In this document: piece by piece, positions 18,164 to 42,398 of the stretch | How the letters are laid out: every line of letters starts with the position of its first letter | Numbering within the stretch: the first letter of the stretch is position 1 | Virus record (IMG/VR): IMGVR_UViG_3300017565_000002 | Location: 151,804-215,803 of that record | Length of the DNA: 64,000 nt | Origin: a virus | Lineage: Duplodnaviria; Caudoviricetes | Direction: 5' to 3' (one strand) | Program-made: the position numbers and the translations under genes | The notes under the pieces: generated by a model | Seen by the model: the letters and a program-made list of their open reading frames with translations, nothing else | Database searches by the model: none | What the model was told of the DNA's origin: nothing

Positions 18164-18913
18164 TTAAGATGTGCTGGAAATAAATTTGACTGTAGATACA
18201 GGTATAGCAGTAGGTGAGTCAAATTCTTTGGAGCCAGCACGATGAGTATAGCAGAAGTATTTTCCGGTCTCAGCATTCTTACCGAAGGAACACTCCGTTT
18301 CGCCATACTTTGCTTTAACTGCTTCTCTTTCATCTGGTGTCAGAGGTACAATTTCGCGCTTACGCTTCTTACGGCGGGTGGCCTCTTGGATTAACTCTAC
18401 CCGTTCGGAACCAATGATACTTTCCAAAACGGATAAATCGTTAAACTCTTTCTCGGCGGCTCCTGTGTATACACCCTTGTAAACTTTAGTCTTCTTCGAC
18501 CCGATGAAAGAGAGTGCTTCTTTACGATGATGACCATCGATCAGAATAGCTTTCCCATCAGATTGAGGTGTAATGCCGTGGAGTTTATCAACGACTACCA
18601 ATGGGTAATTATTGTCTCCACCTTCTTGTTTTATCGTAGAAGCAATTTCGAATACCTTGGTGTTATTGACCGGTTTATCAATACCCTCGATATTTTCAAC
18701 ATCCATCGTTGCTTCCGACCATTTATAATTCTTGGCAAAACTCAGTGCAGCTTCTACGTTGGGCTCATCGTATTCGTGACTTGTCGCAACGCCGTAAGCA
18801 ACTGCTTTTCCAATTGGGTCATTCTTAAATGCGTCTTCCAATACAGGAATCTTCCCAGCCTTATTACGTTTAGTAGGAAGTTCTTTTGCTTCACGTAGCA
18901 GATTACTAAACAT
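18164..18913 (-). CDS. ParB/sulfiredoxin-like domain protein with a small C-terminal domain
   Basis: YPLVVV...ILIDGHHRKEAL; start refined to the ATG giving MFSNLLRE|A. Confidence 0.7.
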   Translation of the reverse strand: MFSNLLREAKELPTKRNKAGKIPVLEDAFKNDPIGKAVAYGVATSHEYDEPNVEAALSFAKNYKWSEATMDVENIEGIDKPVNNTKVFEIASTIKQEGGDNNYPLVVVDKLHGITPQSDGKAILIDGHHRKEALSFIGSKKTKVYKGVYTGAAEKEFNDLSVLESIIGSERVELIQEATRRKKRKREIVPLTPDEREAVKAKYGETECSFGKNAETGKYFCYTHRAGSKEFDSPTAIPVSTVKFISSTS

Positions 18914-18926
18914 CCGAAACACCTCT

Positions 18927-19862
18927 TTACTTATTATTTAAGGACTTTTCGTGCTGTATGGCCAAATCTAAGATGTTAAACATCTGGTGATGGCCGTATA
19001 AGATTGCGCCAAGGAATTTATGACACAATTGAATGATGCCGTTATACATATCTTGTAGGAAGCCAAGACGTTTATTGATGTCTCCTGCATCCACCGGCCC
19101 GGATTTTACTGCATTGTGGAATCGGTTAGAGGTGTCATCCATCTTACTGGCAATTTGGTTAGCCAGTGTTTGTATCTGATTAATCTCGGAACCGATGCCC
19201 TTTATATAGTATTCGGTCATATGGTTAAGATCCAGAGAAGCAATGGATACTTTCCGGAGCTGCCCAAAGATTGTCGCTTCAAGACTATGCCCATTTATCA
19301 TGTACGATTTATTACCAAAGATAAAGGTTAAAGCGCCATTGACAATGTGGACAACGTTTTGACCACCCAAGGTAAACTCTTGGTTGAAAGGATAGTTTCC
19401 GGGTCTACCTTCGGCAATTGAATCACAGTATCTGAGGATACGGTCGATTGCTTCGTAGAACCGTTTGAAGTTGATTGCTGGTTTATCGAGAACACTGGGT
19501 GCAGAGATGTAGATAATATGCGGGTCTGTCTTCCCTCGTTCTTGGTAGCTTTGAATCAAGTGTCTATTTTTCATGATATAAGCCATATTATCTTCTTTTC
19601 TACCACGGATTTTCTCGACCAGATTGCGGAAGAATGCCTTGACGATATTGATAATCCGTTTGAAGAATGCTTTGATTTTAGCGGCCAAACCATCTGAGGC
19701 CTCTTCCGCCGCTGATTCAGTGAGCAGCTGTTTAGCCGTCGTACTGATCAGTGAGATCGCTTCGTAAATATCACACACATCGACAGTGCTTTCGAAAAAA
19801 GCCAGCTCAGTTTCGAGCTGGCCTTCCCGTATCAGTTGGATACGTTCTGCCAAGTTATCCAT
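18927..19862 (-). CDS. Internal head protein paralog
   Basis: RIQLIRE|G, LLTE|SA, then KIKAFFKRIINIVKAFFRNL. Confidence 0.65.
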   Translation of the reverse strand: MDNLAERIQLIREGQLETELAFFESTVDVCDIYEAISLISTTAKQLLTESAAEEASDGLAAKIKAFFKRIINIVKAFFRNLVEKIRGRKEDNMAYIMKNRHLIQSYQERGKTDPHIIYISAPSVLDKPAINFKRFYEAIDRILRYCDSIAEGRPGNYPFNQEFTLGGQNVVHIVNGALTFIFGNKSYMINGHSLEATIFGQLRKVSIASLDLNHMTEYYIKGIGSEINQIQTLANQIASKMDDTSNRFHNAVKSGPVDAGDINKRLGFLQDMYNGIIQLCHKFLGAILYGHHQMFNILDLAIQHEKSLNNK

Positions 19863-19885
19863 TAATGTAACTCCCCTTCCAAAGT

Positions 19886-20572
19886 TTAGGTAAGGCCCTC
19901 CAAGTATCCACCGCTATAGAATAACCCTGCATCGATGATTACATTCTGTGGAACTTTTTCTGCTAAGGATTTTATTTTCTCAACCACTTTCCGTTCGTCG
20001 TAGTGTGCGCTGATACCTTTAATAACAAAGTAGAACGTCTTAATCTTTGCAATGTCACTCGGTCTAACCAGTGTAGATTTCTTGCTCGTTCCGGCATTTC
20101 CAACCTTTAAGATTGTATCCACGAATTGAGAGCAGAAATAAGATTCTCCATCTTCGCCTCTCTTGTGAGGAATTTTGAATGCATTATAGAGTAACCCGAT
20201 AAAGTTGTATTTCATTTCTCTAGATGTATTTTCCTCGGTTAAATCCATTAGTCTGTCTAACATCGCATCTCGCTCTTGCTTAGGTATAAACGAAACGTAT
20301 AGCGCATAATTTGTACCCGGAGAGAATAAATCAATGTCTGTGAAATTCTCTTTCGCAAATCCACCAACCAATCGATTAATCTGCGAAAGTTTGCCTGATC
20401 CAAAGCTATACATATTCTTTAGCGATGAATCAAACGAGATCGATACATGTGAATAGGTTTCACCTGTGACTCGTCTTATGATGTTTGAAACTGTGGAGCC
20501 TGAACGGCTCATAACGACGAATACTGGGTGATGTTCTCCGACTGGAGAATTATTCACAATGTCTGCGAACAC
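19886..20572 (-). CDS. Permuted papain-like (NlpC/P60, YiiX/YebB C92-type) amidase/peptidase
   Basis: His in YSHVSIS precedes Cys in YFCSQFV; KYNFIGL motif; GTG start. Confidence 0.8.
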   Translation of the reverse strand: MFADIVNNSPVGEHHPVFVVMSRSGSTVSNIIRRVTGETYSHVSISFDSSLKNMYSFGSGKLSQINRLVGGFAKENFTDIDLFSPGTNYALYVSFIPKQERDAMLDRLMDLTEENTSREMKYNFIGLLYNAFKIPHKRGEDGESYFCSQFVDTILKVGNAGTSKKSTLVRPSDIAKIKTFYFVIKGISAHYDERKVVEKIKSLAEKVPQNVIIDAGLFYSGGYLEGLT

Positions 20573-20589
20573 AGTAAATCAACTTCCTT

Positions 20590-21540
20590 TCATCCTTGAA
20601 TTAGGTAGATAATCTGTCGGATTGTGTCTCGTTGACGCTCGTACTTTTCCTTCAGAGCAGCGATCTTAGCGTCAAATACTGAGGAATATATCTTTACAAT
20701 ATCCATGATGAAATTTGTGAGTACCGATTGATACTCTCGGTACATTCCGCCTTCCACCACGTTTACTGTAAATGGCGCATTGGTCGATGGCTTTACCGTT
20801 ACATCATACGATCCAGAGCTAAACTCTAAAGAGTAGATGCGACCGATTTGTGCTTTATAGTCTATAAGAATACTATTGATCATCCGATGGGAGGATCGAA
20901 CAGCTTTCTTGGCTACCTCATAAGTACGAAGATCTGCAATTTGTGCCATCAAATCTTCTCTGGTCAATTTGGTTTCGTATTCAGCAGATGATGGTTTGAA
21001 TACCTTCTTGAGCACATCATCGAATTGTCCCTCGGCAACGGGACCGTTTACACCCATGATTTGTGCTCGAATGAGTGGGAGGTTATCCTGTATTTGATCC
21101 TTGAGGTCTTTCAATGCCTTAGAATCAACCTTCCCACCCATAACAGCCATGGCTGACGTAATAACATCTAAGCTAATCGTGGCTGGTACGGTATTGGTAA
21201 GATTGTATTCTACCTTACGATATCGGATGGATTCAATCTTTTTGTCATCCATCTTCTGAAGAAGAGGTTCATATTTCTTCAAGAGCGATTCCGTCGTCCG
21301 TACCGTCACATCCAGAAGTGCGGTAATTCTTTCATAGGTAGATTTGATATAGTATATGATAGCGTCAATCATCTGGATAAACTTTTGTTTAATAAAGGAA
21401 GTTTCATGAAGAATTGCGATACGTCCGGTTTCGTTGAAGCATTGGACCCCTAATGTATACTCTTCGTAAGATTCTCTAAGGAGATCTGTCAGATTCAAGG
21501 ATTCATTCAACACCGGTTCACTTGGATGATAACCAAACAT
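20590..21540 (-). CDS. Internal head protein paralog
   Basis: Start refined to MFGYHP (GGAGG RBS); VLNE|S, LLRE|S, ILHE|T, then amphipathic helix. Confidence 0.6.
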   Translation of the reverse strand: MFGYHPSEPVLNESLNLTDLLRESYEEYTLGVQCFNETGRIAILHETSFIKQKFIQMIDAIIYYIKSTYERITALLDVTVRTTESLLKKYEPLLQKMDDKKIESIRYRKVEYNLTNTVPATISLDVITSAMAVMGGKVDSKALKDLKDQIQDNLPLIRAQIMGVNGPVAEGQFDDVLKKVFKPSSAEYETKLTREDLMAQIADLRTYEVAKKAVRSSHRMINSILIDYKAQIGRIYSLEFSSGSYDVTVKPSTNAPFTVNVVEGGMYREYQSVLTNFIMDIVKIYSSVFDAKIAALKEKYERQRDTIRQIIYLIQG

Positions 21541-21564
21541 ATTCAAGCCTCCCAACTTGCATGT

Positions 21565-21576
21565 TAATGCAATGTT
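21565..21576 (-). promoter_or_regulatory. Putative late promoter AACA-N6-TA
   Basis: AACAttgcatTA downstream of the 21594-21620 hairpin. Confidence 0.55.
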
Positions 21577-21593
21577 TTATTTATCGAAATAGA

Positions 21594-21620
21594 ACACACT
21601 ACCTCTGGAAGGTAGTGTGT
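21594..21620 (-). terminator. Intrinsic terminator
   Basis: ACACACTACC/GGTAGTGTGT stem. Confidence 0.6.
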
Positions 21621-21625
21621 ATCCG

Positions 21626-22789
21626 TTAAATAATTCCGATCAACCCTACACCTTTTATTGTATGATCATCCAAGTCCAAGTAGGCGGTGTAAGGTTCAAT
21701 GAATGCATTTTCGGTTACTTCTTCCGCGTTCTCATTCACTGGGTTTGTCAACGCATTATTCTTATATCGATAGGCATAGACGATAAATCGTCTAGCTTCG
21801 GTATATTGCTCAAGAATTGCATTGATCTTTACTTGAGTCAATCGTGTATACACCAGCATGGCGGTGTTTATAATCCTAATCCGTGCTCGGTGATAAGCGA
21901 TTCGCTCAGTTGCCAATATACGAGGATTTCCGTTATAAATATTCTTGGATCGATTATCGATCGATATTGCATTCATGAGATTTGACTGGAGTTCATGGAC
22001 TTGGCGTACAAGCTCACCATGTACCCGATTGATATCCGCTTGAGCCCGTGAGACATTCTCCACGATTGTAAACAGATCCGGCGTGAATAATACCGGCTTA
22101 CGTTTACTATTATTCCGAAGTGCTTTATTTGCACTATCTTGGAGATCGTCAAGCGATTTTGCATTTGTAGCGAAGATGATGTTAGCTGCCTTATTGATCA
22201 GGTAGCCGTCATCAATCTTTTCGACGGTTTTTACATTATCCGATAAATGTTTCTTTTTGTCGTCGGGTAATGTGTCGCTGAATTCTTCCGTCAGGTCATA
22301 CTTGAAATCAGAGTAGAGCGTTCCCCAGCTACCTTCGATCTTTGTTAGATCGATTGCGCGGAAGTTGTACTCATGCATCTCGGCTTTCAATGTCCTAATT
22401 ACACTACGCGGGTTATTGTATAACTCGGTAAGTACAGGACGCATTTCTTGGAAAATCTTTTTGTCAGATAGCAACTTAGTTTGAATCTTTGCTATGATCA
22501 TATTGAAGAATTTGACGATCCAATTTTTGATTGCGTCGAGGATCTTTAAGAGTTTCTTATAGACACCATCGACTGCGCCTTCCATAATCAAATCTGCTTG
22601 CTCGTTAATTATCCCACCCGTCTCATTAAGCACTTCAGTCATCCGTTGACGATAAAAACTGACCGCAGTATTTAAACTGCGGTCAGCCTCTGTCACCAGG
22701 ATTTCGAAGTCGCTTGTATCAAAGTCGAGCCTGCTATCCAGACCAACTACTTTGACGGGATCACCCATTTGCGCTTCAAAATCAAACAT
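21626..22789 (-). CDS. Internal head protein paralog (387 aa, twin A)
   Basis: MFDFE..., LIME|G, AIKNWIVKFFNMII; clear paralog of the next gene. Confidence 0.7.
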   Translation of the reverse strand: MFDFEAQMGDPVKVVGLDSRLDFDTSDFEILVTEADRSLNTAVSFYRQRMTEVLNETGGIINEQADLIMEGAVDGVYKKLLKILDAIKNWIVKFFNMIIAKIQTKLLSDKKIFQEMRPVLTELYNNPRSVIRTLKAEMHEYNFRAIDLTKIEGSWGTLYSDFKYDLTEEFSDTLPDDKKKHLSDNVKTVEKIDDGYLINKAANIIFATNAKSLDDLQDSANKALRNNSKRKPVLFTPDLFTIVENVSRAQADINRVHGELVRQVHELQSNLMNAISIDNRSKNIYNGNPRILATERIAYHRARIRIINTAMLVYTRLTQVKINAILEQYTEARRFIVYAYRYKNNALTNPVNENAEEVTENAFIEPYTAYLDLDDHTIKGVGLIGII

Positions 22790-22833: not shown

Positions 22834-23997
22834 TTACCACGCGTCGTTAGCGGATTCGTTAAACGGATACGGAGTATCGGCAACTTCGTCCGAATCCACA
22901 TCGAGGTATGGTTCGTATAGATCTTCTGCCGCTTCGTTGATGTTCTTCGGTGCCTTGTAGTGATACGCTTTGACAACGAACTGCTTTGCTTCGCGGGCTT
23001 GTTCAACCGCTGCTTGCAGCTTGATGTTGTTCAGCAGGATAGCCGTATCCAAAGCAACGCTCAGAATTTTGCGCTTTGCGTTGAAGTATGCAACTTGACC
23101 GGAGTGGAACGACTTAGCAGCCGTCACATGGTCTTTGTTTTTCGGATCGGTTTTGATGGAGCTGCTGGTGGAAGTTTTGGATTCCTTGACCTTGGATTTG
23201 ATCTCTTTGATCATGTCATCCACTTCCTTGACCATACCCTTGAACGCCTTGTCGATTGGCTCCTTAACCTTTTGGAAGTTCTCGACAACGGCAGCATAGT
23301 CCATGCTGAATTCCTTCGCTTTGCGTTCGCCGCCTTTGCGGAGCAACTTGCGTGCTTCCACGCCGACGTCTTTCATCGATTTTGCATTGCCAGTATACAT
23401 ACTGCGAACCGCACGGAGTGCGATGTCTTCGCGGGAAGTCGACTCGACCGCTTTAACGGACTCGTCGAGCTTTTCGCGGCTGGAATCTGTATAGTCCGGA
23501 GTCAAATCATACGCCGAAGCTTTGTACTGATCGTTCCATTTGCCGACGATATTTTCGATTTTGATTACACCAAGATCGTATTCATGAACCTCGGCTTTCA
23601 AACCTTTCAGTTCGCCGTTGTTAAGTTTCTTGGCCACTTCCGGTTTGATTTTGTCAATGACCTTTTTGTTGGTAACCATGAACGTTTGAACTTTCAGGAT
23701 GATCGTTTGCGCCGTTTTGATCAGCCAGTTTTTGATGGCTGTCAAGAGTTTGACGATGCGTTGGCCGATGGTTTCATTTGCGTTTTCCATGACCAGCTCA
23801 GCATCTTCGTTCAACACACCGGCACTTTCCGTCAAGACTTCGCTCATAAGCGAGCGGAAGCCGCTCATGCGCTTAGTGATAGCGTCGTCTGCCTCGGTGA
23901 TCATACTGGTGAAATCGCTGCTGTCGAAATTGAACGTCGTAGCCTCAAGAGCTAAAACGTTCGGTTGGGATTCTTTTGTGCTGGTGAAATCAAACAT
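22834..23997 (-). CDS. Internal head protein paralog (387 aa, twin B; probably abundant)
   Basis: MFDFT..., LVME|N, AIKNWLIKTAQTII; visibly biased, GC-richer codon use. Confidence 0.7.
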   Translation of the reverse strand: MFDFTSTKESQPNVLALEATTFNFDSSDFTSMITEADDAITKRMSGFRSLMSEVLTESAGVLNEDAELVMENANETIGQRIVKLLTAIKNWLIKTAQTIILKVQTFMVTNKKVIDKIKPEVAKKLNNGELKGLKAEVHEYDLGVIKIENIVGKWNDQYKASAYDLTPDYTDSSREKLDESVKAVESTSREDIALRAVRSMYTGNAKSMKDVGVEARKLLRKGGERKAKEFSMDYAAVVENFQKVKEPIDKAFKGMVKEVDDMIKEIKSKVKESKTSTSSSIKTDPKNKDHVTAAKSFHSGQVAYFNAKRKILSVALDTAILLNNIKLQAAVEQAREAKQFVVKAYHYKAPKNINEAAEDLYEPYLDVDSDEVADTPYPFNESANDAW

Positions 23998-24059: not shown

Positions 24060-24071
24060 CAATGAAATGTT
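24060..24071 (-). promoter_or_regulatory. Putative late promoter AACA-N6-TG
   Basis: AACAtttcatTG upstream of the 23997 start. Confidence 0.45.
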
Positions 24072-25176
24072 ACTTGGGATAAACACTATTTGTCTTGAAT
24101 AATTGGTCAGGAATTGCACATTCGGTATACAAGATGCCGATTTCGGAATCTGCATGAGGCAGATAGCTCTCATTGAGTTTATTGAACGGATCAGCCCTGT
24201 TCTGAACTGTGTCGTAGGTGTTGATAACAATCCTACGATAGTTGACGCTCAATTCTTCCAAAATTTCAGATTTTATCCGGATGACTTCGACAATCAGGGA
24301 GAGTGTGTAACACATAGCCATCTTCCGATTGACGAAAAATTTGGTGATGATCGACCCGGCATATTCATTTCCTTCATCGAGGAAAATCTTTTTGCTTTCT
24401 TGGCAGTTGATGATTTCATTCTCCAACTCCAAGATGATGGCATTGATTTCGTCGATATTAATATAGCTATCTACACTCAGTAACGTTGCAAAAACTTCAT
24501 CTGTGAAATAGCGAGTTTCGGTTGCCGTTGGATCAACCAAGCTGTCACGAACTCTTGTATACATACTATCTCCAACGGTTATCGTCGAGGGAACGCCCAA
24601 GAGCGCTTTTTTCAACGTCTCGGTGATATTACCCATCCCACATTTATAGTAGGCATCGTTGATGCGTTCGATTTCATCAATCGGCTTGGTGACATTTTTG
24701 GTGTCTAACTCCAATACATCCTCAATAACCGCTTTTGCTCTGGATAGAAGCTCGCTGGTTGAAAGTGTATCCAAATTATACCGAGGTACGGTATAAGATA
24801 CCTTGCTTACATCCACCTGCTTCAGAAGTGGTTGATAGCGATGAGTGACATCGGAGTTTGCTTTCTTCAATGTATCCAATGTCATCTTAACGCTACTGCG
24901 AATTTTTTCAAATCCGCTGATTGTTTCGTTTGCATCATTGATGACATCCTCGATAATATCCTTGGACGCTTCTGTCAGGATGGTAGTTACAGATTCATCA
25001 TATACACCGTCATTCTTACTCAGTGCTTCAGACAGAAGTCCGCCATATAGCTTAACTTTCATCGATGTAATATGGTTGGATTCAATCATTGCATGGTTTA
25101 ATTGATCCACCGCTTCTTGGATAGACGTTCTTGGATTGTGGTCACGATGAATTTTACCTTTGATATCATTAAACAT
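24070..25176 (-). CDS. Internal head protein paralog
   Basis: Start refined to MFNDIK behind AAGGAGG; SIQE|A, ILTE|A, KLNE|S. Confidence 0.6.
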   Translation of the reverse strand: MFNDIKGKIHRDHNPRTSIQEAVDQLNHAMIESNHITSMKVKLYGGLLSEALSKNDGVYDESVTTILTEASKDIIEDVINDANETISGFEKIRSSVKMTLDTLKKANSDVTHRYQPLLKQVDVSKVSYTVPRYNLDTLSTSELLSRAKAVIEDVLELDTKNVTKPIDEIERINDAYYKCGMGNITETLKKALLGVPSTITVGDSMYTRVRDSLVDPTATETRYFTDEVFATLLSVDSYINIDEINAIILELENEIINCQESKKIFLDEGNEYAGSIITKFFVNRKMAMCYTLSLIVEVIRIKSEILEELSVNYRRIVINTYDTVQNRADPFNKLNESYLPHADSEIGILYTECAIPDQLFKTNSVYPK

Positions 25177-25192
25177 ATTTAAACCTCCTTGG

Positions 25193-26047
25193 TTAATTTG
25201 GATGTGCCATGAAAGAAGCAACTTTAAACATCCGGTCATACCCATACAAAATTACCGAATGGATAAGTGTTACACCCCTGAGTATCCCCTCGAATAATGC
25301 AGAGATGATTTTAAGGGTCAGAGGAATATCATTGTCACTCATAGTCATTTCGGCTAATCCGTATTTCTTAGCGACTCGTCCCATTCGATCGTTAATACCC
25401 TTTAACACCTTGTCGATGACGGAAAGGAACCTATCGAATTCGATCAGACGCTTGATAACGGTTGCCGTTGGTAAAGTGTTCAATTGTACATAATCAAATG
25501 ACCCATATACCATGGTATACAAGGATATCCGCCCATCAGTTCCTCGGAAGGGAACACCGAATGAATCCTTGATAATGGTTGTTTGGATCTTATTTGTAAG
25601 ATCTGGAAGATTGTTTCGATAAGTTAATAGCTGAGGGAAGCGCTGAAGGACTTTATCATCATTCGCGCCTCTCTCCAACTCATCGATATCCTCCAACCAG
25701 CTATTAACCGCTTTTTCGATATCATCAAAATCAATATCCGCTTTAAATAGCCGAACCGGCATTTCCATCTTATGCGCTCCGTCATAGGAAAGAATACGGT
25801 TCCTCATTGCCAGTAGAGATTGGACATTTTTTGCTTTGACCATCCCTAGTCGTCTCCGAATCCACTGAATGAAAGCCACGATCTTTTCTTGAAGATAGCG
25901 AATGAATGCTTTAATTCTTGACTGATCTTGGGCTTCGACCAGAACTAAAGACCTATGCTCCGCCAATAAGTTCATGTCCTTCAATGATTCATAGAAGGTA
26001 ACAATTTCACATTCTTGCAATTGAAAGTGTCGTATAGGTGGGAACAA
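25193..26047 (-). CDS. Internal head protein paralog
   Basis: TTG start with GAGGTG RBS; VLVE|A then RIKAFIRYLQEKIVAFIQWI. Confidence 0.6.
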   Translation of the reverse strand: MFPPIRHFQLQECEIVTFYESLKDMNLLAEHRSLVLVEAQDQSRIKAFIRYLQEKIVAFIQWIRRRLGMVKAKNVQSLLAMRNRILSYDGAHKMEMPVRLFKADIDFDDIEKAVNSWLEDIDELERGANDDKVLQRFPQLLTYRNNLPDLTNKIQTTIIKDSFGVPFRGTDGRISLYTMVYGSFDYVQLNTLPTATVIKRLIEFDRFLSVIDKVLKGINDRMGRVAKKYGLAEMTMSDNDIPLTLKIISALFEGILRGVTLIHSVILYGYDRMFKVASFMAHPN

Positions 26048-26069: not shown

Positions 26070-26939
26070 TTAAGCGCCTTCAACGCGCGCCATTGTATTC
26101 GCAACCCGAATAAGTGTTGAATAAGCAGACAGAACCAATGCATATACTTTGGTCAATCCCGCTATGATTCCATCAAGAACGACGATGATAAGATTGGCCA
26201 ACTTATTTGCAGACCTTAGATCCTGTTCTTTCAATCGTCTAGTCTGCATAAAGTTATTTAAGCCAGTATTCACATACGTTCTTAATGTGGAAACCGTTTC
26301 AACCACCAAACTATAATGGTCAAGTTTCTGATTGACTGTGCGACCTCCGACTGTACCGAGATTCACATCTATCGATTGACCATATACTTCGGAAACCAAA
26401 TCTTCACTGTCTAAGTTTTTCTCATCAATATCATACATGGATGTGACAATATCGGCAGCTATCTTATTTTTCAAGCCTTCCAAATCATCCATATACATGG
26501 CGATACCCACATACTTATTCATACCTTCAGGGTTAAGTCCATCTCTGGCAAACATACCAATTTCGGTCATATACTCACCGATCCGACGGTCAAGTGCTTT
26601 ATTGTCCGGGGTGAGCAGGAATAATTTCTCAGGAATTCTAACGATGTCATTACCATTGTAGTTAGCAATGGCGTTTGTCATCGTCCGACTCCTCTTACCT
26701 CTGGTAAGACTGAGTTTGTTCAATAACCAATTGAAGAAGTCGATAACTTTCTTTCGCATGAACTCAATCGCTTTTTTGATAATATCTATTGCTGAGGTTT
26801 CAGTTAGTAAATCCGTTTCGATAAGGTATTGGCTACATTCTTTCATGAGCATGTGATAGACATGTGATTCTTCTATCCGCCCATCCAGTTCCACCATACC
26901 CTCTCGAATAAACTGAATGCGAGTGTTCAAATCAAACAT
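26070..26939 (-). CDS. Internal head protein paralog
   Basis: MFDLNTRIQFIRE|G; LLTE|T then IKKAIEFMRKKVIDFFNWLL. Confidence 0.65.
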   Translation of the reverse strand: MFDLNTRIQFIREGMVELDGRIEESHVYHMLMKECSQYLIETDLLTETSAIDIIKKAIEFMRKKVIDFFNWLLNKLSLTRGKRSRTMTNAIANYNGNDIVRIPEKLFLLTPDNKALDRRIGEYMTEIGMFARDGLNPEGMNKYVGIAMYMDDLEGLKNKIAADIVTSMYDIDEKNLDSEDLVSEVYGQSIDVNLGTVGGRTVNQKLDHYSLVVETVSTLRTYVNTGLNNFMQTRRLKEQDLRSANKLANLIIVVLDGIIAGLTKVYALVLSAYSTLIRVANTMARVEGA

Positions 26940-27838
26940 TAAAGAGCCTCCTTTAGCCCTTTATTAGCTTTGATCATATAGGATAGTACACCGAATAGCA
27001 TATAGTATACTTTCGAATAAACGGATAGGAAGGTTGTGGAGACATCCAGAATTGCCATAATGGAGTTTGCGATGTAACTGATGGCTGTATTCGATTCCGG
27101 TGCTTCCTTCATCTTCTTCTCATAATCCGTTAACAATCCTGTCAAGCTTACATTCATATCTGATTTGAACCGTTCGATGTAATCAATCGAGTCAGATAAC
27201 TCAGTAAATTTAGAGAAGAGTTTCTGCTTATCAATTGATGACAAAGGAATCGGCTTCACTTCACCGTAGATATACGCAAGAATTGCATCAACCCTTTCGG
27301 CATCACCCAGTGCGACACTTGCATTTGCCAATATCGTTCGCATCAACGTTTCGGACAATTCGGCGGAAGTTGGAACACCATTAGGAGTTTTCTTACTGGT
27401 AGATGCAGAGCCAGATATAATATTCATCGATACTTCATCTTGGAATTTATGGATGTAAGCTATGACACTGGTCAGACTAATATCACTTGTAGGAGATAGA
27501 ATCTTCTCCGGAAGATTTACTTGTGTTGTATTATCGATTGGGAAACGGATGATAGCCGCTCTATTCTTTATGACCCAGTTCGTCTTCTGCTTCTTGTCAC
27601 CCTTTATCCAAGCAATCCATTTTTTCAATACAGCGATGACCTTTTCAATGATCATGCGGATAAATTTCTTACCTCTTTCCAACCAATTGCCACCATCTTC
27701 ATTTGCAGCTTCCATGATATAAACATAGGAAGCCTCTCGAATACTCATAACAGCCTCGTGGAAGGTAATCGGTTTAACACTTTCTCTGCTAGGTACAATT
27801 AGACCGTTTTCATATATCAGATGATCATACATTGTCAA
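26939..27838 (-). CDS. Internal head protein paralog
   Basis: YIME|A then KFIRMIIEKVIAVLKKWIAWI. Confidence 0.6.
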   Translation of the reverse strand: MTMYDHLIYENGLIVPSRESVKPITFHEAVMSIREASYVYIMEAANEDGGNWLERGKKFIRMIIEKVIAVLKKWIAWIKGDKKQKTNWVIKNRAAIIRFPIDNTTQVNLPEKILSPTSDISLTSVIAYIHKFQDEVSMNIISGSASTSKKTPNGVPTSAELSETLMRTILANASVALGDAERVDAILAYIYGEVKPIPLSSIDKQKLFSKFTELSDSIDYIERFKSDMNVSLTGLLTDYEKKMKEAPESNTAISYIANSIMAILDVSTTFLSVYSKVYYMLFGVLSYMIKANKGLKEAL

Positions 27839-28755
27839 CCTACTCCCTTCCTGACCTTAGCATGGATAACCATTGCAGATGCGGTGGATACAATAGAAGA
27901 CATAATTTGAAGTGCTGTATTTGCAATCAGGTGTACATTTCGGTTGAAGAATGACGTAAAGTAATGAACGACAGTATTGAACATGTGTTGAGGGTTTGGT
28001 CCAAGCATATTCAACTTGTCCGTTACCTTCGTCGCTGTGTTCAACGTATTGAGAATCTTGGTATATTCCTTCGAGAACTCGTCGAATTCAGTTTTGAACT
28101 CACCCGTCTTGAGGAATACATCATAGAACTTGTCAACATGTACACCTTTCATCACTTTCTTTTCTCCAATCAATTCAGCCCGAATTTCATCAGCCGAACG
28201 ATGGTTGAATTGAGATAGGGATGGGACATAGCCTTCGAATCTCTTTGCAAGGGATTTCCCTTTGGTTGCGATAGCTTTGGTTACCTCGACGCCTTTTTGG
28301 AGAGTGCTCATCGAGGAAAGTAATTCGTCTAAACTGTTGATACGGTGGTTCTTAAGTTCTGCACTAGCTTTCTTAAGTCTATCCAATACAGAACCGAACG
28401 AGTTGATATTCGAGTACGTTTCAACCTCGATTTTACTATAATCGACTTTACGGAGTATCTTCTGATACCGGTTAAGCCGAGTTTGCGTGATTTTGAACGT
28501 ACGATCGAAGAAATCTTTGATCTTTGTGATCATCTTCTTGAATACTTCGATCAGTCGGGTGATGATACCCTTCCGCTCTCCTTCGGTGTCAGCTTCGGTT
28601 ATGATCATTCCATGAGAAGGTGTTGTTTCGTACAATGAGACGATGGATGATTCCAGAAAAAAATGGGATTGATTGAATCTTAACTCCCCCACCGACTCTT
28701 GGATCAGTTCCGCAAAGTTCAACCTCTGAGATTCTTGGATAATATCATTAAACAT
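27835..28755 (-). CDS. Internal head protein paralog
   Basis: Start refined to MFNDIIQE|S; IITE|A then RLIEVFKKMITKIKDFFDR. Confidence 0.6.
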   Translation of the reverse strand: MFNDIIQESQRLNFAELIQESVGELRFNQSHFFLESSIVSLYETTPSHGMIITEADTEGERKGIITRLIEVFKKMITKIKDFFDRTFKITQTRLNRYQKILRKVDYSKIEVETYSNINSFGSVLDRLKKASAELKNHRINSLDELLSSMSTLQKGVEVTKAIATKGKSLAKRFEGYVPSLSQFNHRSADEIRAELIGEKKVMKGVHVDKFYDVFLKTGEFKTEFDEFSKEYTKILNTLNTATKVTDKLNMLGPNPQHMFNTVVHYFTSFFNRNVHLIANTALQIMSSIVSTASAMVIHAKVRKGVG

Positions 28756-28883: not shown

Positions 28884-29351
28884 TCATTCCTTACCAAGCT
28901 TAGCAAACTTAGAAGGAATGTAACGACCAGTGTTAAGGAGAGTTGCTACATCATCTAACGTATCAACCCATTTTGCACCATTCCGAATCACCATTTCACC
29001 AACGGCTTTCATGGATCGAGTTTGACTTTCGTCAAATTTCTTATCCCCGTCAGCAGGTAAGAAACAGAAGATGGTGGATTCCGGGCGTTTATTACTATCA
29101 TCGATAACTTCCGCAATGGAATAGACGCCGGTCATGGTTGGCGAAATCACATACAATACAAACGCAGCATTATCTCGCATTTGTAGCTCCAGCTTCTTAT
29201 GCGCTGGTGTCCAATCTTTAACGACCGGGTTAAAATATTTGATTTTCAATTTGGGGATGAGCTGATCTCTCCAATTATTCTTCTCTGCCCCTGCTGTTGT
29301 ACCACCAAGGAATACAAACATATTACTCTTGATGATAATTTCATTGAACAT
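28884..29351 (-). CDS. Nucleoside 2-deoxyribosyltransferase-like protein (Nuc_deoxyri_tr2 type)
   Basis: VFLGGT...WRDQLI...YFNPVVKDW...LYVISP..TGVYSIAE (catalytic-type Glu). Confidence 0.8.
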   Translation of the reverse strand: MFNEIIIKSNMFVFLGGTTAGAEKNNWRDQLIPKLKIKYFNPVVKDWTPAHKKLELQMRDNAAFVLYVISPTMTGVYSIAEVIDDSNKRPESTIFCFLPADGDKKFDESQTRSMKAVGEMVIRNGAKWVDTLDDVATLLNTGRYIPSKFAKLGKE

Positions 29352-29364: not shown

Positions 29365-30327
29365 TCAAAAGAGAACGACGTCGGACTGTTGTACCTTCTC
29401 TTTTGCTTCTCTCTCCGCCTGCTTCTCGCTCTTTTCATATTTGAACGCAAAGACTTGCGAGATTTGACTCAGACGATCTGCAATCCAAGATTGAATACGG
29501 ATTGTCTTGGACGCCGAAGATCCTCTCGTTGCTTGTAACGTTTCAACGTTTGCCTTAATCAGGCTTGCTTGAACTTCAGCAGCATCACTAAGTTTCAGTC
29601 GGCTATAGTAGAACAGGAAGATCAATTCTTTGGTCAATGGGATAATCTTAAAGATACCCATGATTGCACCAATGATAACCAAGACTGGCACAACTGAAGC
29701 TCCGACGCCTTCATGAATCGTACTTGGCCGGTTGGTCGCTTCCAATGTTTTACTGAATGATCCATCGGCAACTTGCTTATTGAAATGATTGAGCGAGTCG
29801 ATCATGAGGTACGAGTTACTCTTGCTATATTTCTTATTCATAATAACTTGGACAGTATCCGTATTCCCAGCATGAACGAAGTCAACTACTGTGGAGATCA
29901 TGAGTGATGCCCCACAGAAGAGAGACATGGTCAGGATATTATACATCATGATAGCCGTCGCATTTTTCTTGATAAATCCGGTGTAGAATTTCGGGCCGAG
30001 CATTTCGATATTGGCAAGTGCTCGACTCAGAATTTCAACTTCCGGGATAGTTTGATTCGAACTCGAAGCAATATCCTTCAGCATCTCGATTGATGCCTTC
30101 AGGTTTTTATACTCGTCCATATTAATGATATAGCCCTTGGAATCTGGTATGGAGGAGAAATCAATCATATTGTATTTCTCCGCGATTGCCACATAGATAC
30201 GGTCAATCAAGTTTCGACTAACCGAAATCTTTTCGGCCTCCGTTAATTGCATGAACCTTGTGCGGCTCGGTGTTTCATAGTGCTCCTTGATGCATTCAAA
30301 AAGTAAAAGTTGATCATTAGAGTTCAT
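29365..30327 (-). CDS. Conserved jumbo-phage virion/head protein
   Basis: IDFSSIPDSKG, ELIFLFYYSRLKLSD; hydrophobic segment after TIHE|G. Confidence 0.55.
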   Translation of the reverse strand: MNSNDQLLLFECIKEHYETPSRTRFMQLTEAEKISVSRNLIDRIYVAIAEKYNMIDFSSIPDSKGYIINMDEYKNLKASIEMLKDIASSSNQTIPEVEILSRALANIEMLGPKFYTGFIKKNATAIMMYNILTMSLFCGASLMISTVVDFVHAGNTDTVQVIMNKKYSKSNSYLMIDSLNHFNKQVADGSFSKTLEATNRPSTIHEGVGASVVPVLVIIGAIMGIFKIIPLTKELIFLFYYSRLKLSDAAEVQASLIKANVETLQATRGSSASKTIRIQSWIADRLSQISQVFAFKYEKSEKQAEREAKEKVQQSDVVLF

Positions 30328-30356
30328 CGATATTTCCTCCTATTCGGTTGAGATGG

Positions 30357-31526
30357 TTAACGGCCGACACCCATTGCCTTGATCATATCTTTCAATACAC
30401 GATCCTGATTTGCAGCCTCTCTCTCCAGTGTTTTGTAGGGGTATTCTTGGAAGCCAGGTTGAGAGTCGAATTGTGTATATACAATCTCATTCACCTGATC
30501 CACAATGACCAGACCCAGAAGATAATAAGCTTTCATAATCTTCTCAGCCTGTTTAAACACGTCGATACCATACTTGGTCTTCAGTAAGTTAACCTCGTTC
30601 ACCGTCAAGCAGATTGTAGCGATCGGCTTAAAGCTATTAACCAGTGTTCCCTTAGCCAGATCCGCCAACCGTTGACGACGTTTGAATGCCTCAATCCATG
30701 GATTTGCCTTTTGGTTCAGCAGGTCGAATTTCATCTGGGAGATGCCGAATAGGAAATCAGCGGCTGATTTTTCTTCCCGAGAAATAAACTTGACGAACCC
30801 AAGAAACCCTTTCTTGGCATTAACCGTATTTGCAATATCACGAACCAATTCATTGGAAGATGTCTTGTGCATAGTCGCCTTGATATTGACCATAATCTCC
30901 ACGGTGTTCGTAGCCACGATGGCATCCTGTGCATTCCGTGTTACGAACCGTACAGGAATTTGCAATGTCGTTGGCAAAAGCTCGTTAGCTTTCTTCCAGT
31001 CCAAATCTGAAAATAACGACTTCGAAGTAGACTTAAACTGCGAAACATCATTGGATACCGTAGAAAATTCCGCACCCGTTTTGTTCAGCGAATCCAATGG
31101 TTCGGTTTTCGGCATATACGGTTTATCCGCTTCATTCAGTGGTAGCATATTGAAATCCTTATCGCTACCTGCCGACTCAAACGTTAGGGTCACCCCCGCA
31201 TTAGGTCGGATACCGATATTGGTGTGGAATTGACTCAGATAATCCCGTACAGTAGACGACGAGAATGAATCTACCTCAACTGCCGGAATTAGTGCGAAAG
31301 CAGTTCTTGCAAAAACGGCATACGCCCTTTCCAATGCGCGTATGACCATAACTAACTCTTCAGATGCCATATATTCTGAAGCCACGACTGGAAAAAAATA
31401 AGTGCTATCATTGGCAATGGACGATAAGGACTTTGCACGCCCGCCACCAACAGTGAGCCTTTTTCCGAGAAATTTCCGTTCCTTTTTGATCATTTTTCCT
31501 AATGTGACGATTTCCTCAATAATCAT
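30357..31526 (-). CDS. Conserved jumbo-phage virion/head protein
   Basis: Start refined to MIIEEIV behind GGGAGG; FFPVVASE...IRALERAY; LTFE|SA, PLNE|A. Confidence 0.55.
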   Translation of the reverse strand: MIIEEIVTLGKMIKKERKFLGKRLTVGGGRAKSLSSIANDSTYFFPVVASEYMASEELVMVIRALERAYAVFARTAFALIPAVEVDSFSSSTVRDYLSQFHTNIGIRPNAGVTLTFESAGSDKDFNMLPLNEADKPYMPKTEPLDSLNKTGAEFSTVSNDVSQFKSTSKSLFSDLDWKKANELLPTTLQIPVRFVTRNAQDAIVATNTVEIMVNIKATMHKTSSNELVRDIANTVNAKKGFLGFVKFISREEKSAADFLFGISQMKFDLLNQKANPWIEAFKRRQRLADLAKGTLVNSFKPIATICLTVNEVNLLKTKYGIDVFKQAEKIMKAYYLLGLVIVDQVNEIVYTQFDSQPGFQEYPYKTLEREAANQDRVLKDMIKAMGVGR

Positions 31527-35981: not shown

Positions 35982-38174
35982 ATGTTCGATACAGATACGT
36001 TAAAACTGAATGAATCATTGCGTAAAGCCCATAACGCTAGGCTATTGGAGGCTCAAAGACAAAAAGAAGAGGATGACAGGAAAGTTATTAAACTCTTCGT
36101 TGAAACTTTGACCCAACAATATCAAGCGATGAGAAACCCGGCGATTGAAAGTGTCATTGACCGGTTTCAAATTATCGAGTCGGCAACCATCCATGGCGTT
36201 CGCGATACTCTTTATAGGATCTTCGAATCTGCATTGCTCATAGACGAATCCCATAAAGGATTGTATCAAGGCGTTTTCAAAAACTTATTCAACGAAAAGT
36301 TTAATGCGGTGCTCAAGGAGAATGGTGTAAACACTCTGAAAGATTTTCAGGCTCACCTGAAAAATGGTCATCCTATTCTCCAGACAATCACAGAGTCGGT
36401 AAAGTCTTTCGTTACAAATAGTGCGAATATCTATTCGGAGCTTTTGAAGACGCAATATAACCATACAACGGCGAATAGAGCGATCTTGGAAGCTTATAAA
36501 ACAATATCTGCTGATGATTCGGCAGACGACAAGAAGGAAGCACTGAATAAGTTGGGTACGACAATTATGCAAGAACTCAACACCTATGATTCCAGTACCG
36601 AGTTGAAAATCGGCGAGCATGTAAAACAACTTCTCATCCTGTGTAATAAAGCAAACCAAGTAGGGATCACTCAAATCCTACACGTGAATAGTTACTTGGC
36701 ATGTGTAGAAGGCGTGATCGGCGACCCACGTCACACGAAATATCTGCCTACGTATAAGAAACATCTCATCGCCATTCGCTCTGAAATATTGGCAATGGTG
36801 AAGGCGAAATATGCGGAATCGGTACACGATACACGGTTACAATCGATCATTAGTCGTATCAATACCATCTTGGCGACGATTGAAAAACCTGTTCAACTGG
36901 CAGAGACATCCTTCATGGAACTGATCACCGAAGTTCATGCTGCTACCGCAGAAAACGATGATCAAAAAATCAAATTTGCCTTTGCCAAGATCAAACAGAA
37001 ACTCCGGGAAGTTATTGAACTCTTCAACCCATATACCGGTCTTGAAGGATTGAGAATGGTTAACGAAATCATGATCGATAACTTCAACGCTGCGACATAC
37101 GGCGCGATTCCGTTAGTTGGGCCGTTTATCTATGTAGCAATGAGCATTACAAATTCTTCTAAAGTTTCACCAGCGATGGCAACTCAAGCTGTAAAAGAAG
37201 CCGAGACATTCTTGGCTACATTGGAGCAGCAAATCAGAAGATTGCATAAGCTTAATGATCATGCAAATGCTCGTAAACTTGAACGTCAATACAAACGGCT
37301 AGATTCCTTTATCTGCGAATATCGAGATGACACCCGGAAGAAAAGAATCAAGTTTATGAGAGAGAATGATATGCCATTGGAGGATTTGGTTGAATCTGCT
37401 ATGGAGATGGCCCAGTATCTTCTGGTGTATGAAGTTACAGTTGAAGATCTGACCACCATGTTCGAAGCAGTGATTGAATCCGCTGATGATTCGGTAGAGG
37501 ATCGTGAACTTCTCCTTAAGACTGTACGTTGCGAAACCTGTGGACAAGAAACAGTACAGGAATCGGATCTCGTAACGCAGTGTAATTGCATAGAAGCTGC
37601 GCTATATGAATCCATCCACTTCGGTTCACCCGAAGGATTAACCGAATCTGCTCACAAGCGTCTATTGGAAGGTCAACTTCCCTCGGAAGATGATTATCTG
37701 GATGACGAAGAAAAAGATTTGGTTGACTCCATTGCGAATGTAAATGGTAAAGGGCGAGCTGTAGATATCATCAAGACAAAGGTTATTGCCGTTATCGAAT
37801 CCGAGGAAGAACGGGCTCGTAAACGCGAACAAGAGGAGCAAGACATCCTCAACCGAATGAGTCCTGATGATATTGAAAACCTGAAGAACACTATGAACGA
37901 AAATGCGGGTTCTCCGATCAGCATTGGTAAACAGGGGTTGAACGCACCGGAATCTCTGTTCGAGGCTATCGTGATGAACCGGTCTAAGAAATACATCCAA
38001 GAATCTACGCAGAACGGTGATAAGTTTGATATCCTGGGACGTAAAGAAACCATCCAAGCAGAATCCTTGGTTCTCTTTACGATCCATGAAACTTTCAACG
38101 TACTTGGCTTTGAGAAATATACAATGGGTAAACAAAATAAATTGATGAACGATTACTATTACGGTAAATTGTAA
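35982..38174 (+). CDS. Large helical head/core protein with many candidate protease sites
   Basis: MFDTD start; repeated [LIV]xE|S/A motifs (KLNES, IIESA, LVESA, LYES, LTESA, IQES). Confidence 0.6.
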   Translation: MFDTDTLKLNESLRKAHNARLLEAQRQKEEDDRKVIKLFVETLTQQYQAMRNPAIESVIDRFQIIESATIHGVRDTLYRIFESALLIDESHKGLYQGVFKNLFNEKFNAVLKENGVNTLKDFQAHLKNGHPILQTITESVKSFVTNSANIYSELLKTQYNHTTANRAILEAYKTISADDSADDKKEALNKLGTTIMQELNTYDSSTELKIGEHVKQLLILCNKANQVGITQILHVNSYLACVEGVIGDPRHTKYLPTYKKHLIAIRSEILAMVKAKYAESVHDTRLQSIISRINTILATIEKPVQLAETSFMELITEVHAATAENDDQKIKFAFAKIKQKLREVIELFNPYTGLEGLRMVNEIMIDNFNAATYGAIPLVGPFIYVAMSITNSSKVSPAMATQAVKEAETFLATLEQQIRRLHKLNDHANARKLERQYKRLDSFICEYRDDTRKKRIKFMRENDMPLEDLVESAMEMAQYLLVYEVTVEDLTTMFEAVIESADDSVEDRELLLKTVRCETCGQETVQESDLVTQCNCIEAALYESIHFGSPEGLTESAHKRLLEGQLPSEDDYLDDEEKDLVDSIANVNGKGRAVDIIKTKVIAVIESEEERARKREQEEQDILNRMSPDDIENLKNTMNENAGSPISIGKQGLNAPESLFEAIVMNRSKKYIQESTQNGDKFDILGRKETIQAESLVLFTIHETFNVLGFEKYTMGKQNKLMNDYYYGKL

Positions 38175-38221: not shown

Positions 38222-38794
38222 CTAGGAGACGGCATAGGCATCATGCATACCATCCAATATATTAACAACTTCGAAATATGTTTTTGCAGCAGTGATCGTG
38301 TCATGGATGGGATTATGTTTCACCAAGTTATTGCAGTTGGTGAACTTAAACCTATCGAGATCAGGGTCAAAGTCTGCACACGCAAGCACTGTGCCGAGAT
38401 CTATGATAGGGTATGGACCCAACCATTCTCTCTCTTTCAGATTATCCAATACGCACTTAGTGAAGAATCCACTTTCACATGGGTATTGAAAATCAGCGAG
38501 AATAATAGATGATTCCCGATACTGCATATAAAGCGTCCAGAACGCATCGCGCATCTCTTTTCGCGTATTAAATTTTACAAAATCACCACGAAATTGTTCG
38601 GAGATAGGAGGGACGATGTTTGCATTACACCACGGGGATACGACTCGATCAAGCTCGGCAAATCCTCCGACGGTTCTAACGATTTCCTTTGTTCCCATGT
38701 CCCAGACGGAAACTCCCCATGCAAATGTATCACCATATAAGTCGTCAGTTTCTACGTCTATTGAAAATAAGTGAGTTTTGTTTTTTGAAAACAT
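38222..38794 (-). CDS. DEDDh 3'-5' exonuclease
   Basis: FSIDVET (ExoI) and KHNPIHD (ExoIII). Confidence 0.8.
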   Translation of the reverse strand: MFSKNKTHLFSIDVETDDLYGDTFAWGVSVWDMGTKEIVRTVGGFAELDRVVSPWCNANIVPPISEQFRGDFVKFNTRKEMRDAFWTLYMQYRESSIILADFQYPCESGFFTKCVLDNLKEREWLGPYPIIDLGTVLACADFDPDLDRFKFTNCNNLVKHNPIHDTITAAKTYFEVVNILDGMHDAYAVS

Positions 38795-41229: not shown

Positions 41230-41234
41230 GATTA

Positions 41235-41750
41235 TTAGTAGATTTCTTCATACCCATATACAGAATGGAGTGGAATAAAGTGTCGGCGAATCTTTGTTAC
41301 CATTATCGGTAGAACAAACACAAATTGAATTACTACCGATTCATCTTCTTCTGTAACTGCATGGAGTTGCCCGATTTGAACAACCGGTTTTCTATTATCC
41401 CTATTCTTCCAATAGAGTTTGACCGTTCTATTAACCATTTTCCGAGCATCTACAATAGACATACCCGGATTAAATTTAACCATCCGTTCAAGCATATTAG
41501 CTTCCTTTGCCAGAAAATCTCCATGACATTCCCTTGGTGCACAATGACACCCTAAGCGTTTCCCGATCAACTCATGAAGTTTAAAGGGAAGCTGTGTATG
41601 CCAAAAATAATTGTCTCGATACAATGTACAAACCCGATGCTTCTCTGCTGGGGATACATCTTCCTTTCGAAATGGGTTTCCCCATTCAGTCTTCCGATCG
41701 ATCCTTATGTCGTACTCTGAGTTGCGCATATTGACAGCAATTGCAGGCAT
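41235..41750 (-). CDS. DUF4326 domain protein
   Basis: IDRKTEWGNPF and LIGKRLGCHCAPRECHGDFL. Confidence 0.85.
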   Translation of the reverse strand: MPAIAVNMRNSEYDIRIDRKTEWGNPFRKEDVSPAEKHRVCTLYRDNYFWHTQLPFKLHELIGKRLGCHCAPRECHGDFLAKEANMLERMVKFNPGMSIVDARKMVNRTVKLYWKNRDNRKPVVQIGQLHAVTEEDESVVIQFVFVLPIMVTKIRRHFIPLHSVYGYEEIY

Positions 41751-41803
41751 GTATTAACTCCTCACTTATCTAAATATTGTAAACTATATTATTTTTAATT
41801 AGA

Positions 41804-41831
41804 AGAGGAGAGACCTCGGCGTCTCTCCTCT
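41804..41831 (-). terminator. Intrinsic terminator
   Basis: AGAGGAGAGAC/GTCTCTCCTCT stem. Confidence 0.65.
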
Positions 41832-41837
41832 ATGAAG

Positions 41838-42398
41838 CTATACTGAAATGTGTATCGAACCTTCATCTCCGTCACCAGTTGTAATGTGGGTCACACCCAG
41901 ACCAATTGGTTCCGCATATTTGAGGTCGATAACTTTTTTGATGTCCCTAAGAACCCACCTGAGCAACCCCATAACCTCTTGGTCGCCTTCGATGATTTGG
42001 ACATGGTCTCCATTATCCTTGAAGATCAATTTGTAATGGTCACTGTCGGCATTTTTCAGATCCTTTTCGATCTCTTTCTTGATCTTGGGATCAGCTTTCA
42101 ATTTGGCGACCATTTTCTTGATGTCTGTCTTTATATTCTGGACAAGTTTCTCTTTGGAGTTTTTACCTATCCATTCATCGTGCTTCCTTCGCTTTTCGGC
42201 GCGATCGGCATCCTTTTTCTTCTCCGATTCATTAGCTTCTTTTTTCTTCTTCGCATCCGAGATATTGAACCCTATTGTGGTAGCAAGTGCTGCGAGTATT
42301 CCAACACCCGCAAGCACTGCCCCAACCTCATTCAGGTTTTCATATTCGACACCTTCTCGAATAAGTTGTATCTTAGTTCGGAGATCCAACTCTGCCAC
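41838..42398 (-). CDS. Probable virion-packaged membrane protein sharing the KIQLIRE|G leader
   Basis: LRTKIQLIREG; NLNE|V followed by a ~20-aa hydrophobic helix and a charged domain. Confidence 0.6.
   Translation of the reverse strand: MAELDLRTKIQLIREGVEYENLNEVGAVLAGVGILAALATTIGFNISDAKKKKEANESEKKKDADRAEKRRKHDEWIGKNSKEKLVQNIKTDIKKMVAKLKADPKIKKEIEKDLKNADSDHYKLIFKDNGDHVQIIEGDQEVMGLLRWVLRDIKKVIDLKYAEPIGLGVTHITTGDGDEGSIHISV

Follow-up and report, generated by a model that had tools for sequence, protein, structure and literature searches.

Background

The capsid-targeting sequence (CTS) of phage T4, for which Mullaney and Black (1996) are reportedly the authors to name, is carried at the N-terminus of internal proteins. 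It reads MKTYQEFIAE (PMC8442874), occurs on the internal proteins IPI-III and on Alt, and is removed by the prohead protease gp21 (PMC9026906, PMC8442874, PMC12373910). Suppressor analysis assigned its residues 4 and 7 to targeting and residues 8 and 10 to processing, and a change of Glu-10 to Asp blocks processing while targeting is kept (PMC9026906). The leader is the only part that the T-even internal proteins, which are injected anti-restriction proteins, have in common (PMC12373910). Here we analyzed a stretch of 64,000 nucleotides (hereafter the window, to which coordinates without a prefix refer) lying at the end of a virus record that is 215,803 bp long, complete, and flanked by terminal repeats (IMG/VR record IMGVR_UViG_3300017565_000002, positions 151,804 to 215,803), with a focus on short N-terminal leaders that start with Met-Phe (MF). 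An initial annotation of the window had proposed that such leaders form a modular code by which enzymes are loaded into the capsid and injected.

Among the giant phages, phiKZ, 201phi2-1 and SPN3US possess internal head proteins (inner body or ejection proteins, PF12699) with propeptides that are cut by gp175/gp245 at (S/A/G)-x-Glu (PMC5694885, PMC10052503). Thomas and colleagues proposed a T4-like role for these propeptides and noted that diverged internal-protein paralogues can have identical N-termini (PMC5694885). In addition, enzymes whose genes lie next to those of virion proteins, ParB/sulfiredoxin (Srx) domains among them, tend to be packaged in the head, as predicted or known for polyvalent proteins, MuF fusions and the DdrB-like ParB domain of P1 (PMC5512222, PMC9503650). 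In the literature on giant-phage internal head proteins, we found no description of a short leader shared with enzymes. To our knowledge, only long propeptides have been described for the AR9/phiKZ-type phages, and we know of no scaffold protein or targeting rule in this group. We consider it moderately likely that the MF leaders, together with a second leader class present in the same genome (class II), are short T4-type N-terminal capsid-targeting propeptides in an AR9-related jumbo phage.

Met-Phe starts in a putative head-protein operon

Genes were called over the whole genome with starts picked by ribosome-binding site, yielding 205 genes, of which 20 begin with Met-Phe in a proteome where Phe accounts for 4.5% of the residues. 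Half of these starts fall in a single run of consecutive minus-strand genes (window 17141-29351), where 10 of 13 genes start with MF vs. 10 of the 192 genes elsewhere (Fisher p = 1.6e-9). All eleven MF starts listed in the initial annotation were recovered, each with a plausible ribosome-binding site, and as it had expected, such starts are not equally common in the remaining genes. Two of the operon MF genes use GTG or TTG as start codon, both being backed by ribosome-binding sites and by ATG-starting orthologues. The constraint on Phe-2 appears to act on the protein, since both Phe codons are in use (TTT 25, TTC 12), by which a constraint at the nucleotide level was ruled out. The leader is also not a recent DNA copy passed between genes, as codons and upstream DNA differ from one MF gene to the next. 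Four related contigs (L001, L016, L022, and L014) encode orthologues (23–60% identity) in which Phe-2 is retained while the residues from position 3 onward vary, and nine consecutive genes start with MF in both L001 and L022.

By its organization and its matches, the array appears to be a single late operon of head proteins. The intergenic gaps are mostly 0–30 bp, and at the head of the operon lie two leaderless virion structural genes (29365..31526, minus strand) that are homologues of AR9 g215 and g214 (BLASTP matches to AR9 g214/g215; phrog_23545 at 1.7e-19 and phrog_23804 at 2.2e-24). A pattern search found the late-type AACA-N6-TA motif AACAGTGTAATA 42 nt upstream of 31526. In AR9 the g215-g218 slot holds g216, an annotated virion protein, and its paralogue g217, while the same slot holds 13 genes here.

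The matches of an 884-aa tail-region protein (33272-35926), which is 27% identical to a protein of the Bacillus phages AR9 and PBS1 and has more distant matches in phiR1-37 and in Staphylococcus jumbo phages, place the source, an uncultured 216-kb soil phage, as a distant member among the AR9/phiKZ-type jumbo phages. Soil Firmicutes are the probable hosts of its clade. The MFDF gene gave no match as DNA or as protein query against the phage collection, where the phage has no close match, and IMG/VR scans for related loci with a single protein (29365-30327) and with alignment A1 gave no match either. The related contigs were obtained by exact-protein look-ups, and the operon is common to four of them, L001, L016, L022 (from a 239-kb contig), and L014, at 23–66% identity. 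Searches against Pfam and PHROGs left most of the array proteins unnamed.

Leader pattern and predicted cleavage sites

The MF leader comprises 8–14 residues and is found on NDT-like, papain-like, ParB/Srx, and helical proteins. Leader statistics were taken over 49 distinct MF leaders. Phe-2 is invariant in them, and Asn or Asp predominates at position 3. Ile, Leu or Met occupies position 5 in 26/49 and Ile, Leu, Phe or Val position 6 in 26/49, while position 8 carries Glu in 15/49 and position 9 Ser or Ala in 17/49. The exact pattern MF-x-x-hydrophobic-hydrophobic-x-E was present in 13 of the 49 (e.g., MFNDIIQE/S, MFSNLLRE/A, MFADIIQE/A, where the slash marks the predicted cut), while most of the other leaders have a hydrophobic-x-Glu site within 25 residues. 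With an offset of 2, Phe-2, positions 5 and 6, and Glu-8 of the compact leader fall on T4 residues 4, 7, 8, and 10. Structure models of two leader-bearing proteins (18164 and 27835) both predict a short helix over residues 2–11, at low confidence.

Hydrophobic-x-Glu sites are enriched about 6-fold in the N-termini of the operon. The pattern [ILVMFA]xE[SAGT] occurs 4.5 times per 100 residues within residues 1–60 of the operon proteins vs. 0.78 in other N-termini (p = 3e-14), and 0.96 times in the rest of the operon proteins (p = 1e-9 vs. their N-termini). In an alignment of four orthologues of the 27835 protein, the invariant positions within residues 1–56 are M1, F2, D4, I18, S21, and D56 together with the Glu residues 8, 20, 24, 35, and 54. 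A candidate enzyme for such sites is encoded by the phage itself, namely a predicted head protease of the T4 gp21 type, the gene of which (G000:C1:96953-97819(-)) adjoins the major capsid and terminase genes. It matched phrog_3014 (head maturation protease) at 1.6e-12 and PF03420, the T4 gp21 family, at an E-value of 1.1e-5 that lies below the cut-off, and a PDB sequence search with it gave no match.

Three leader-bearing enzymes

The proposal that the leader is a module separate from the enzyme domains is supported by the family comparisons: it sits on three unrelated folds, most NDT-, papain-, and ParB-like homologues in the wider families have no MF leader, and other lineages add leaders of their own.

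The first gene of the array (28884..29351, minus strand, 13 bp downstream of a virion structural gene) has a product assigned to the NDT-like PF15891 family (37.5 bits vs. a cut-off of 30, E = 3.2e-9), which is large and well conserved (1319 homologues). As the initial annotation had described, 10 leader residues, MFNEIIIKSN (codons 29322-29351), precede Met-11, where the domain begins. Met-11 was ruled out as the true start and the leader is predicted to be translated, because a ribosome-binding site precedes the upstream ATG and none precedes Met-11, and because relatives have no Met at this position. Members of this family usually start with MK(K)VFLGGT; among the best 120 homologues, 85 have no more than 8 residues before VFLGGT, 7 (including the five best-scoring ones) have an MF leader, and 8 have other long leaders that bear a hydrophobic-x-Glu site. 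As the leader in the window has no Glu cleavage site, it may stay uncleaved, and not every leader can be a cleaved propeptide. Such leaders may be targeted without processing or, alternatively, not targeted at all.

In an unrelated phage, represented by a JGI metagenome contig (L020, 630-15129), around 20 small consecutive genes start with MNFKQF(I/L)NE or MKIIxRIDxYLNE. We read this region as an independent cargo array with two leaders of its own. Leaders of the first kind (MNFKQFLNE) fit the spacing of the T4 CTS at offset 1. The array adjoins a papain-family peptidase gene and includes an NDT-like enzyme, one of the 8 homologues with other long leaders, that starts with the T4-like MSFKQFIAE. 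In another phage lineage, this enzyme thus seems to have received a leader typical of that lineage.

The second enzyme (19886..20572, minus strand, GTG start) begins with MFADIV, has the leader MFADIVNNSPVGE and a domain from about residue 14, and is a predicted permuted papain-like cysteine peptidase of the C92/YiiX type. A profile of its family matched PDB entry 3kw0 ("Cysteine peptidase", E = 1.3e-6); His42 and Cys147 do not vary among 23 sequences, the His preceding the Cys, and PF05708 was matched in one orthologue at an E-value of only 0.043. The matches of its homologues (n = 1577) begin at query residues 13–15. Orthologues start with MFADIIQE/A, MFNDLIKE/A, MFHDIIQE/T or MFNDIITPE; only the closest homologues start with MF, while the rest have other Glu-rich leaders or lie within proteins of 600–2400 aa. 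Among the latter, in P0138-P0145, the papain-like domain is located deep inside proteins of this size that begin with a calcineurin-like phosphoesterase (Metallophos) and also contain GNAT domains; they look like polyvalent multi-enzyme proteins.

The third protein (18164..18913, minus strand) has the compact leader MFSNLLRE/A and, according to its structure model, a ParB-N/sulfiredoxin fold. The top 50 PDB fold matches of this model were mostly to ParB-N, Noc, Srx, SbnI, KorB, and PadC (E from 3e-5), and the residues D126, G127, H129, and R130 of a DGHHR motif are invariant in the family, while Pfam and PDB sequence searches with the family gave no match. Close orthologues start with MFFDILRE/A, MFRALIRE/A, MFRELIRE/A or MFGSLIRE/A, and distant homologues with MIKTSEFLDFLLE/K. 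Residues 155–249 form a separate small C-terminal domain with conserved Cys and His (CSF.K...YFC.T.R). The linker between the two domains is basic, modeled at low confidence, and holds Glu sites, through which the C-terminal domain may be released as a piece of its own. The family also shows rearrangements: in P0127 (397 aa) an extra 125-residue domain with the MF leader MFDPILE/S is fused ahead of the ParB-like protein, the leader of which thereby becomes an internal joint (MFTRLLME/A), and in P0131 (385 aa) a domain of around 140 residues is inserted before the C-terminal Cys/His mini-domain.

A second leader class

A second motif had been reported in three genes by the initial annotation. 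It was found in all three, i.e., as MDNLAERIQLIREG at 19862, MFDLNTRIQFIREG at 26939, and MAELDLRTKIQLIREG (GTG start) at 42398, and is not confined to them: the class II motif (E/D)R(I/L)xx(I/L)(R/Q/K/T)EG was observed genome-wide close to the N-terminus in 11 proteins or more. Outside the window, it is carried by distant paralogues (G000:C1 58818-59816, 59903-60880, and 60958-61875), by the products of 62818-63420, 64249-64692, and 78701-80131, and by two small, very acidic, scaffold-like proteins (98987-99619 and 115682-116227), the first of which is encoded between the head protease and major capsid genes. The motif is also present in L016 and resembles the second leader class of L020.

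The gene that starts at 42398 (41838..42398, minus strand, GTG start) encodes a 186-aa protein in which the class II leader MAELDLRTKIQLIRE/G is followed by a hydrophobic helix and a Lys-rich stretch. A longer plus-strand open reading frame (ORF; 41850-42479) of odd, Phe/Leu-rich composition overlaps it almost fully; it is probably an antisense shadow and a possible trap for automatic gene callers.

Further genes of the array and other MF starts

The helical, internal-head-protein-like gene next to the NDT-like enzyme (27835..28755, minus strand) has the compact leader MFNDIIQE/S, followed by a predicted propeptide of around 55 residues. In its structure model (mean pLDDT 63), residues 1–62 are unstructured or of low confidence and precede a helical body. 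Its best BFVD matches, bearing in mind that all-helical folds match easily, are to an uncharacterised AR9 protein of 296 aa, equal in length to g217 (3e-5), to an AR9 virion protein (TM 0.53/0.60), and to virion structural proteins of 201phi2-1. Its PF12699 match is weak and stays below threshold.

The other genes of the array are likewise encoded on the minus strand. BLASTP resolved two paralogue groups among them, one of which has 3 further members at genome 58818-61875. Four genes are members of a paralogue family. The first (26939..27832) starts with MYDHLIYE/N, Tyr replacing Phe, and its L001 and L022 orthologues start with MFNL; the second (26070..26939) starts with MFDLN and combines both leader types (MFDLNTRIQFIRE/G); the third (25193..26047) has a TTG start with the ribosome-binding site GAGGTGA 6 nt upstream and begins with MFPP (MFPPIRHFQLQE/C); and the fourth, as indicated by paralogy and motif, is 18927..19862, with the class II leader MDNLAERIQLIRE/G. 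A 368-aa protein (24070..25176) reads MFNDIKGK...SIQE/A, and its orthologues start with MFNHDK, MFSFDK or MFTYDK. Two 387-aa paralogues (31% identity by BLASTP) start with MFDFTSTKE...LALE/A (22834..23997) and MFDFEAQ (21626..22789), and M1, F2, and F4 show no variation across six members of the family of the former. A 316-aa protein (20590..21540) begins with MFGY (MFGYHPSEPVLNE/S), its orthologues starting with MFYSSVEPEFILE/S and MFAEYSEPTWVWE/S. The last gene of the array (17141..18145) encodes an internal-head-protein-like product that has no MF start (MHMVLDFPATSLE/E), a weak PF12699 match, and 3 hydrophobic-x-Glu sites in residues 1–60.

Outside the operon, a 730-aa protein encoded on the plus strand (35982..38174) starts with MFDTDTLKLNE/S and has 4 hydrophobic-x-Glu sites in residues 1–60; the MF start is retained in its L014 orthologue (MFDFESLKLHDS). 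A twelfth MF start in the window, that of the MFSKN gene at 38222-38794, was not in the earlier list; it lacks further leader features and probably arose by chance. A tail-sheath-like protein (G000:C1 108455-110224; phrog_19666, 4.6e-21) starts with MFDKVIIVDE/S, which is leader-like, though a sheath should lie outside the head. The gene of the 884-aa tail-region protein adjoins a tube-like gene and carries no sheath annotation. A 297-aa transglycosylase-like protein (G000:C1 82485-83378) starts with MF as well, and a separate 3367-aa ORF (51950-62053) shares 40% identity with it over residues 2721–2962.

Interpretation and alternatives

If the leaders are capsid-targeting propeptides of the T4 type, the tagged proteins would be made late, from a single operon that opens with virion structural genes, and residues 1–8/14 would fold as a short amphipathic helix, of which Phe-2 and the hydrophobic pair at positions 5 and 6, the counterparts of Tyr-4, Phe-7, and Ile-8 of the T4 sequence, would dock the protein on the assembling prohead core. 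The gp21-type protease would cut after hydrophobic-x-Glu and remove the tag, internal head proteins would in addition lose a longer multi-site propeptide, and the mature proteins would stay in the head with the DNA. The cargo would consist of the helical internal head proteins and the NDT-like, permuted papain-like, and ParB/Srx-like enzymes, and would enter the next host together with the DNA. We infer docking, cleavage, encapsidation, and ejection, as well as an anti-defence role, which for the three enzymes is speculation.

Several observations weigh against this interpretation. The phage is uncultivated and known from its genes alone, so that the T4-like comparisons and the packaging claims, with encapsidation, cleavage, and ejection, are predictions from sequence. 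Matching the leader to T4 residues 4, 7, 8, and 10 is a matter of register over 7 positions, a likeness of pattern and not homology. The MF(D/N)F sub-type, which makes up around a quarter of the leaders, is off the T4 spacing and has longer propeptides behind it, and the NDT leader MFNEIIIKSN as well as those of three orthologues (e.g., MFNDILNPSK, MFTDMLKPQG) have no Glu site. The best PF12699 (phiKZ internal head proteins) scores were 18–22 bits vs. a cut-off of 27 (13.7 bits on DNA), and the model also matched five control genomes; given the scores below threshold, we term the array genes internal-head-protein-like and not members of PF12699. Finally, MF also starts a tail-sheath-like gene, a transglycosylase-like gene, and several unnamed ones. 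The suggestion that an MF start marks virion genes therefore stands as an enrichment in the head-protein operon, while MF alone, being also the start of tail-sheath-like and unclassified genes, is no virion marker.

Dense and conserved hydrophobic-x-Glu sites would also suit N-termini that are protease-removed propeptides only, which keep enzymes inactive or aid folding and assembly, with head entry set elsewhere, for instance in the bodies of the proteins or through a chaperone of the SPN3US gp243 type; in SPN3US, abundant internal proteins do need the separate gp243 for their incorporation (PMC5694885). We nevertheless hold this account to be unlikely, as three unrelated enzyme folds share the leader alone, and as MF and the hydrophobic pair persist in several NDT leaders that have no cleavage site, in keeping with targeting that does not rely on cleavage. 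In T4, moreover, the Glu-10 to Asp change stops processing and not targeting (PMC9026906).

The presence of two leader classes could alternatively point to two address codes, Met-Phe and (E/D)R(I/L)xx(I/L)REG, that sort cargo to different parts of the head, for instance ejected proteins and enzymes vs. core or scaffold. The free Met-Phe end would then itself be recognised and cleavage would be optional, as on the NDT enzymes, making it a minimal tag of 2–8 residues distinct from that of T4. We rate this version as rather unlikely.

Quite improbable in our estimate is that Met-Phe serves some other use, e.g., translation initiation, N-terminal stability of late gene products, or an address to the membrane or a replication compartment. 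Such a use would be in line with the AT-rich codons that follow the ATG, and with the MF starts of the sheath-like and a few unclassified genes. However, both Phe codons are used and the downstream codons vary freely, the most highly expressed late genes (major capsid, tube-like, and the 884-aa tail protein) have no MF start, and the MF set coincides with N-termini rich in Glu sites and with the slot of the internal head proteins. That the shared start has no function of its own and stems from chance or paralogue descent is hardly credible: some MF genes are indeed paralogous (21626 with 22834, 25193 with 26070), but the enrichment (p = 1.6e-9), the unrelated NDT, papain-like, and ParB/Srx folds with wider families lacking the leader, and the retention of Phe-2 in relatives at identities down to 23% contradict it.

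Should the T4-type interpretation of the leaders hold, the tag would make it possible to read the head cargo of an uncultured lineage of jumbo phages directly from sequence, and the three enzymes would be present in the cell before any phage gene expression. AR9/phiKZ-type phages would then use the packaging principle of T4, built on the core aromatic-x-x-hydrophobic-hydrophobic-x-Glu, and a tag of 8 residues could find use in protein loading, like the T4 sequence before it. The occurrence of lineage-specific leaders on NDT-, papain-, and ParB-like families suggests that these are recurrent packaged cargo and worth functional testing.

Comparison with known systems

With the polyvalent and MuF systems, the locus shares a ParB/Srx domain encoded beside virion genes and papain-like homologues that occur in multi-enzyme proteins. 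Unlike in those systems, each enzyme here is small and stand-alone with its own short tag, and no fusion to MuF, a portal or a giant carrier is present. The resemblance to the internal head proteins of giant phages lies in arrays of diverged helical paralogues, in putative N-terminal propeptides with several x-x-Glu sites, in N-termini that diverged paralogues have kept in common (SPN3US gp53/gp54 being a known case), and possibly in the fold of the 27835 protein, the low-confidence model of which matched AR9 and 201phi2-1 virion proteins. In contrast, the propeptides known from giant phages are mostly longer than 100 residues, and the sequence match to PF12699 remains below threshold here.

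As in T4, a short N-terminal tag is the sole feature common to otherwise unrelated proteins, its compact form has the aromatic-x-x-hydrophobic-hydrophobic-x-Glu spacing with a predicted hydrophobic-x-Glu cleavage site at its end, a putative gp21-type protease is encoded, and enzymes are among the putative cargo, as Alt is in T4. The locus differs from T4 in that the tag has 8 residues and runs straight from Met-Phe, without the Lys-Thr that precedes the aromatic residue in the CTS, in that a second leader class exists alongside and some leaders have no cleavage site, and in that it belongs to a jumbo phage related to AR9 and PBS1 rather than to a T4-like phage. We infer that the principle, already known from T4, is here extended to a new phage group. 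What would be new is the very short Met-Phe form of the tag and its presence, in a lineage related to AR9, on three enzymes that stand alone, together with two coexisting leader classes and the same enzyme families bearing different leaders in different phages.

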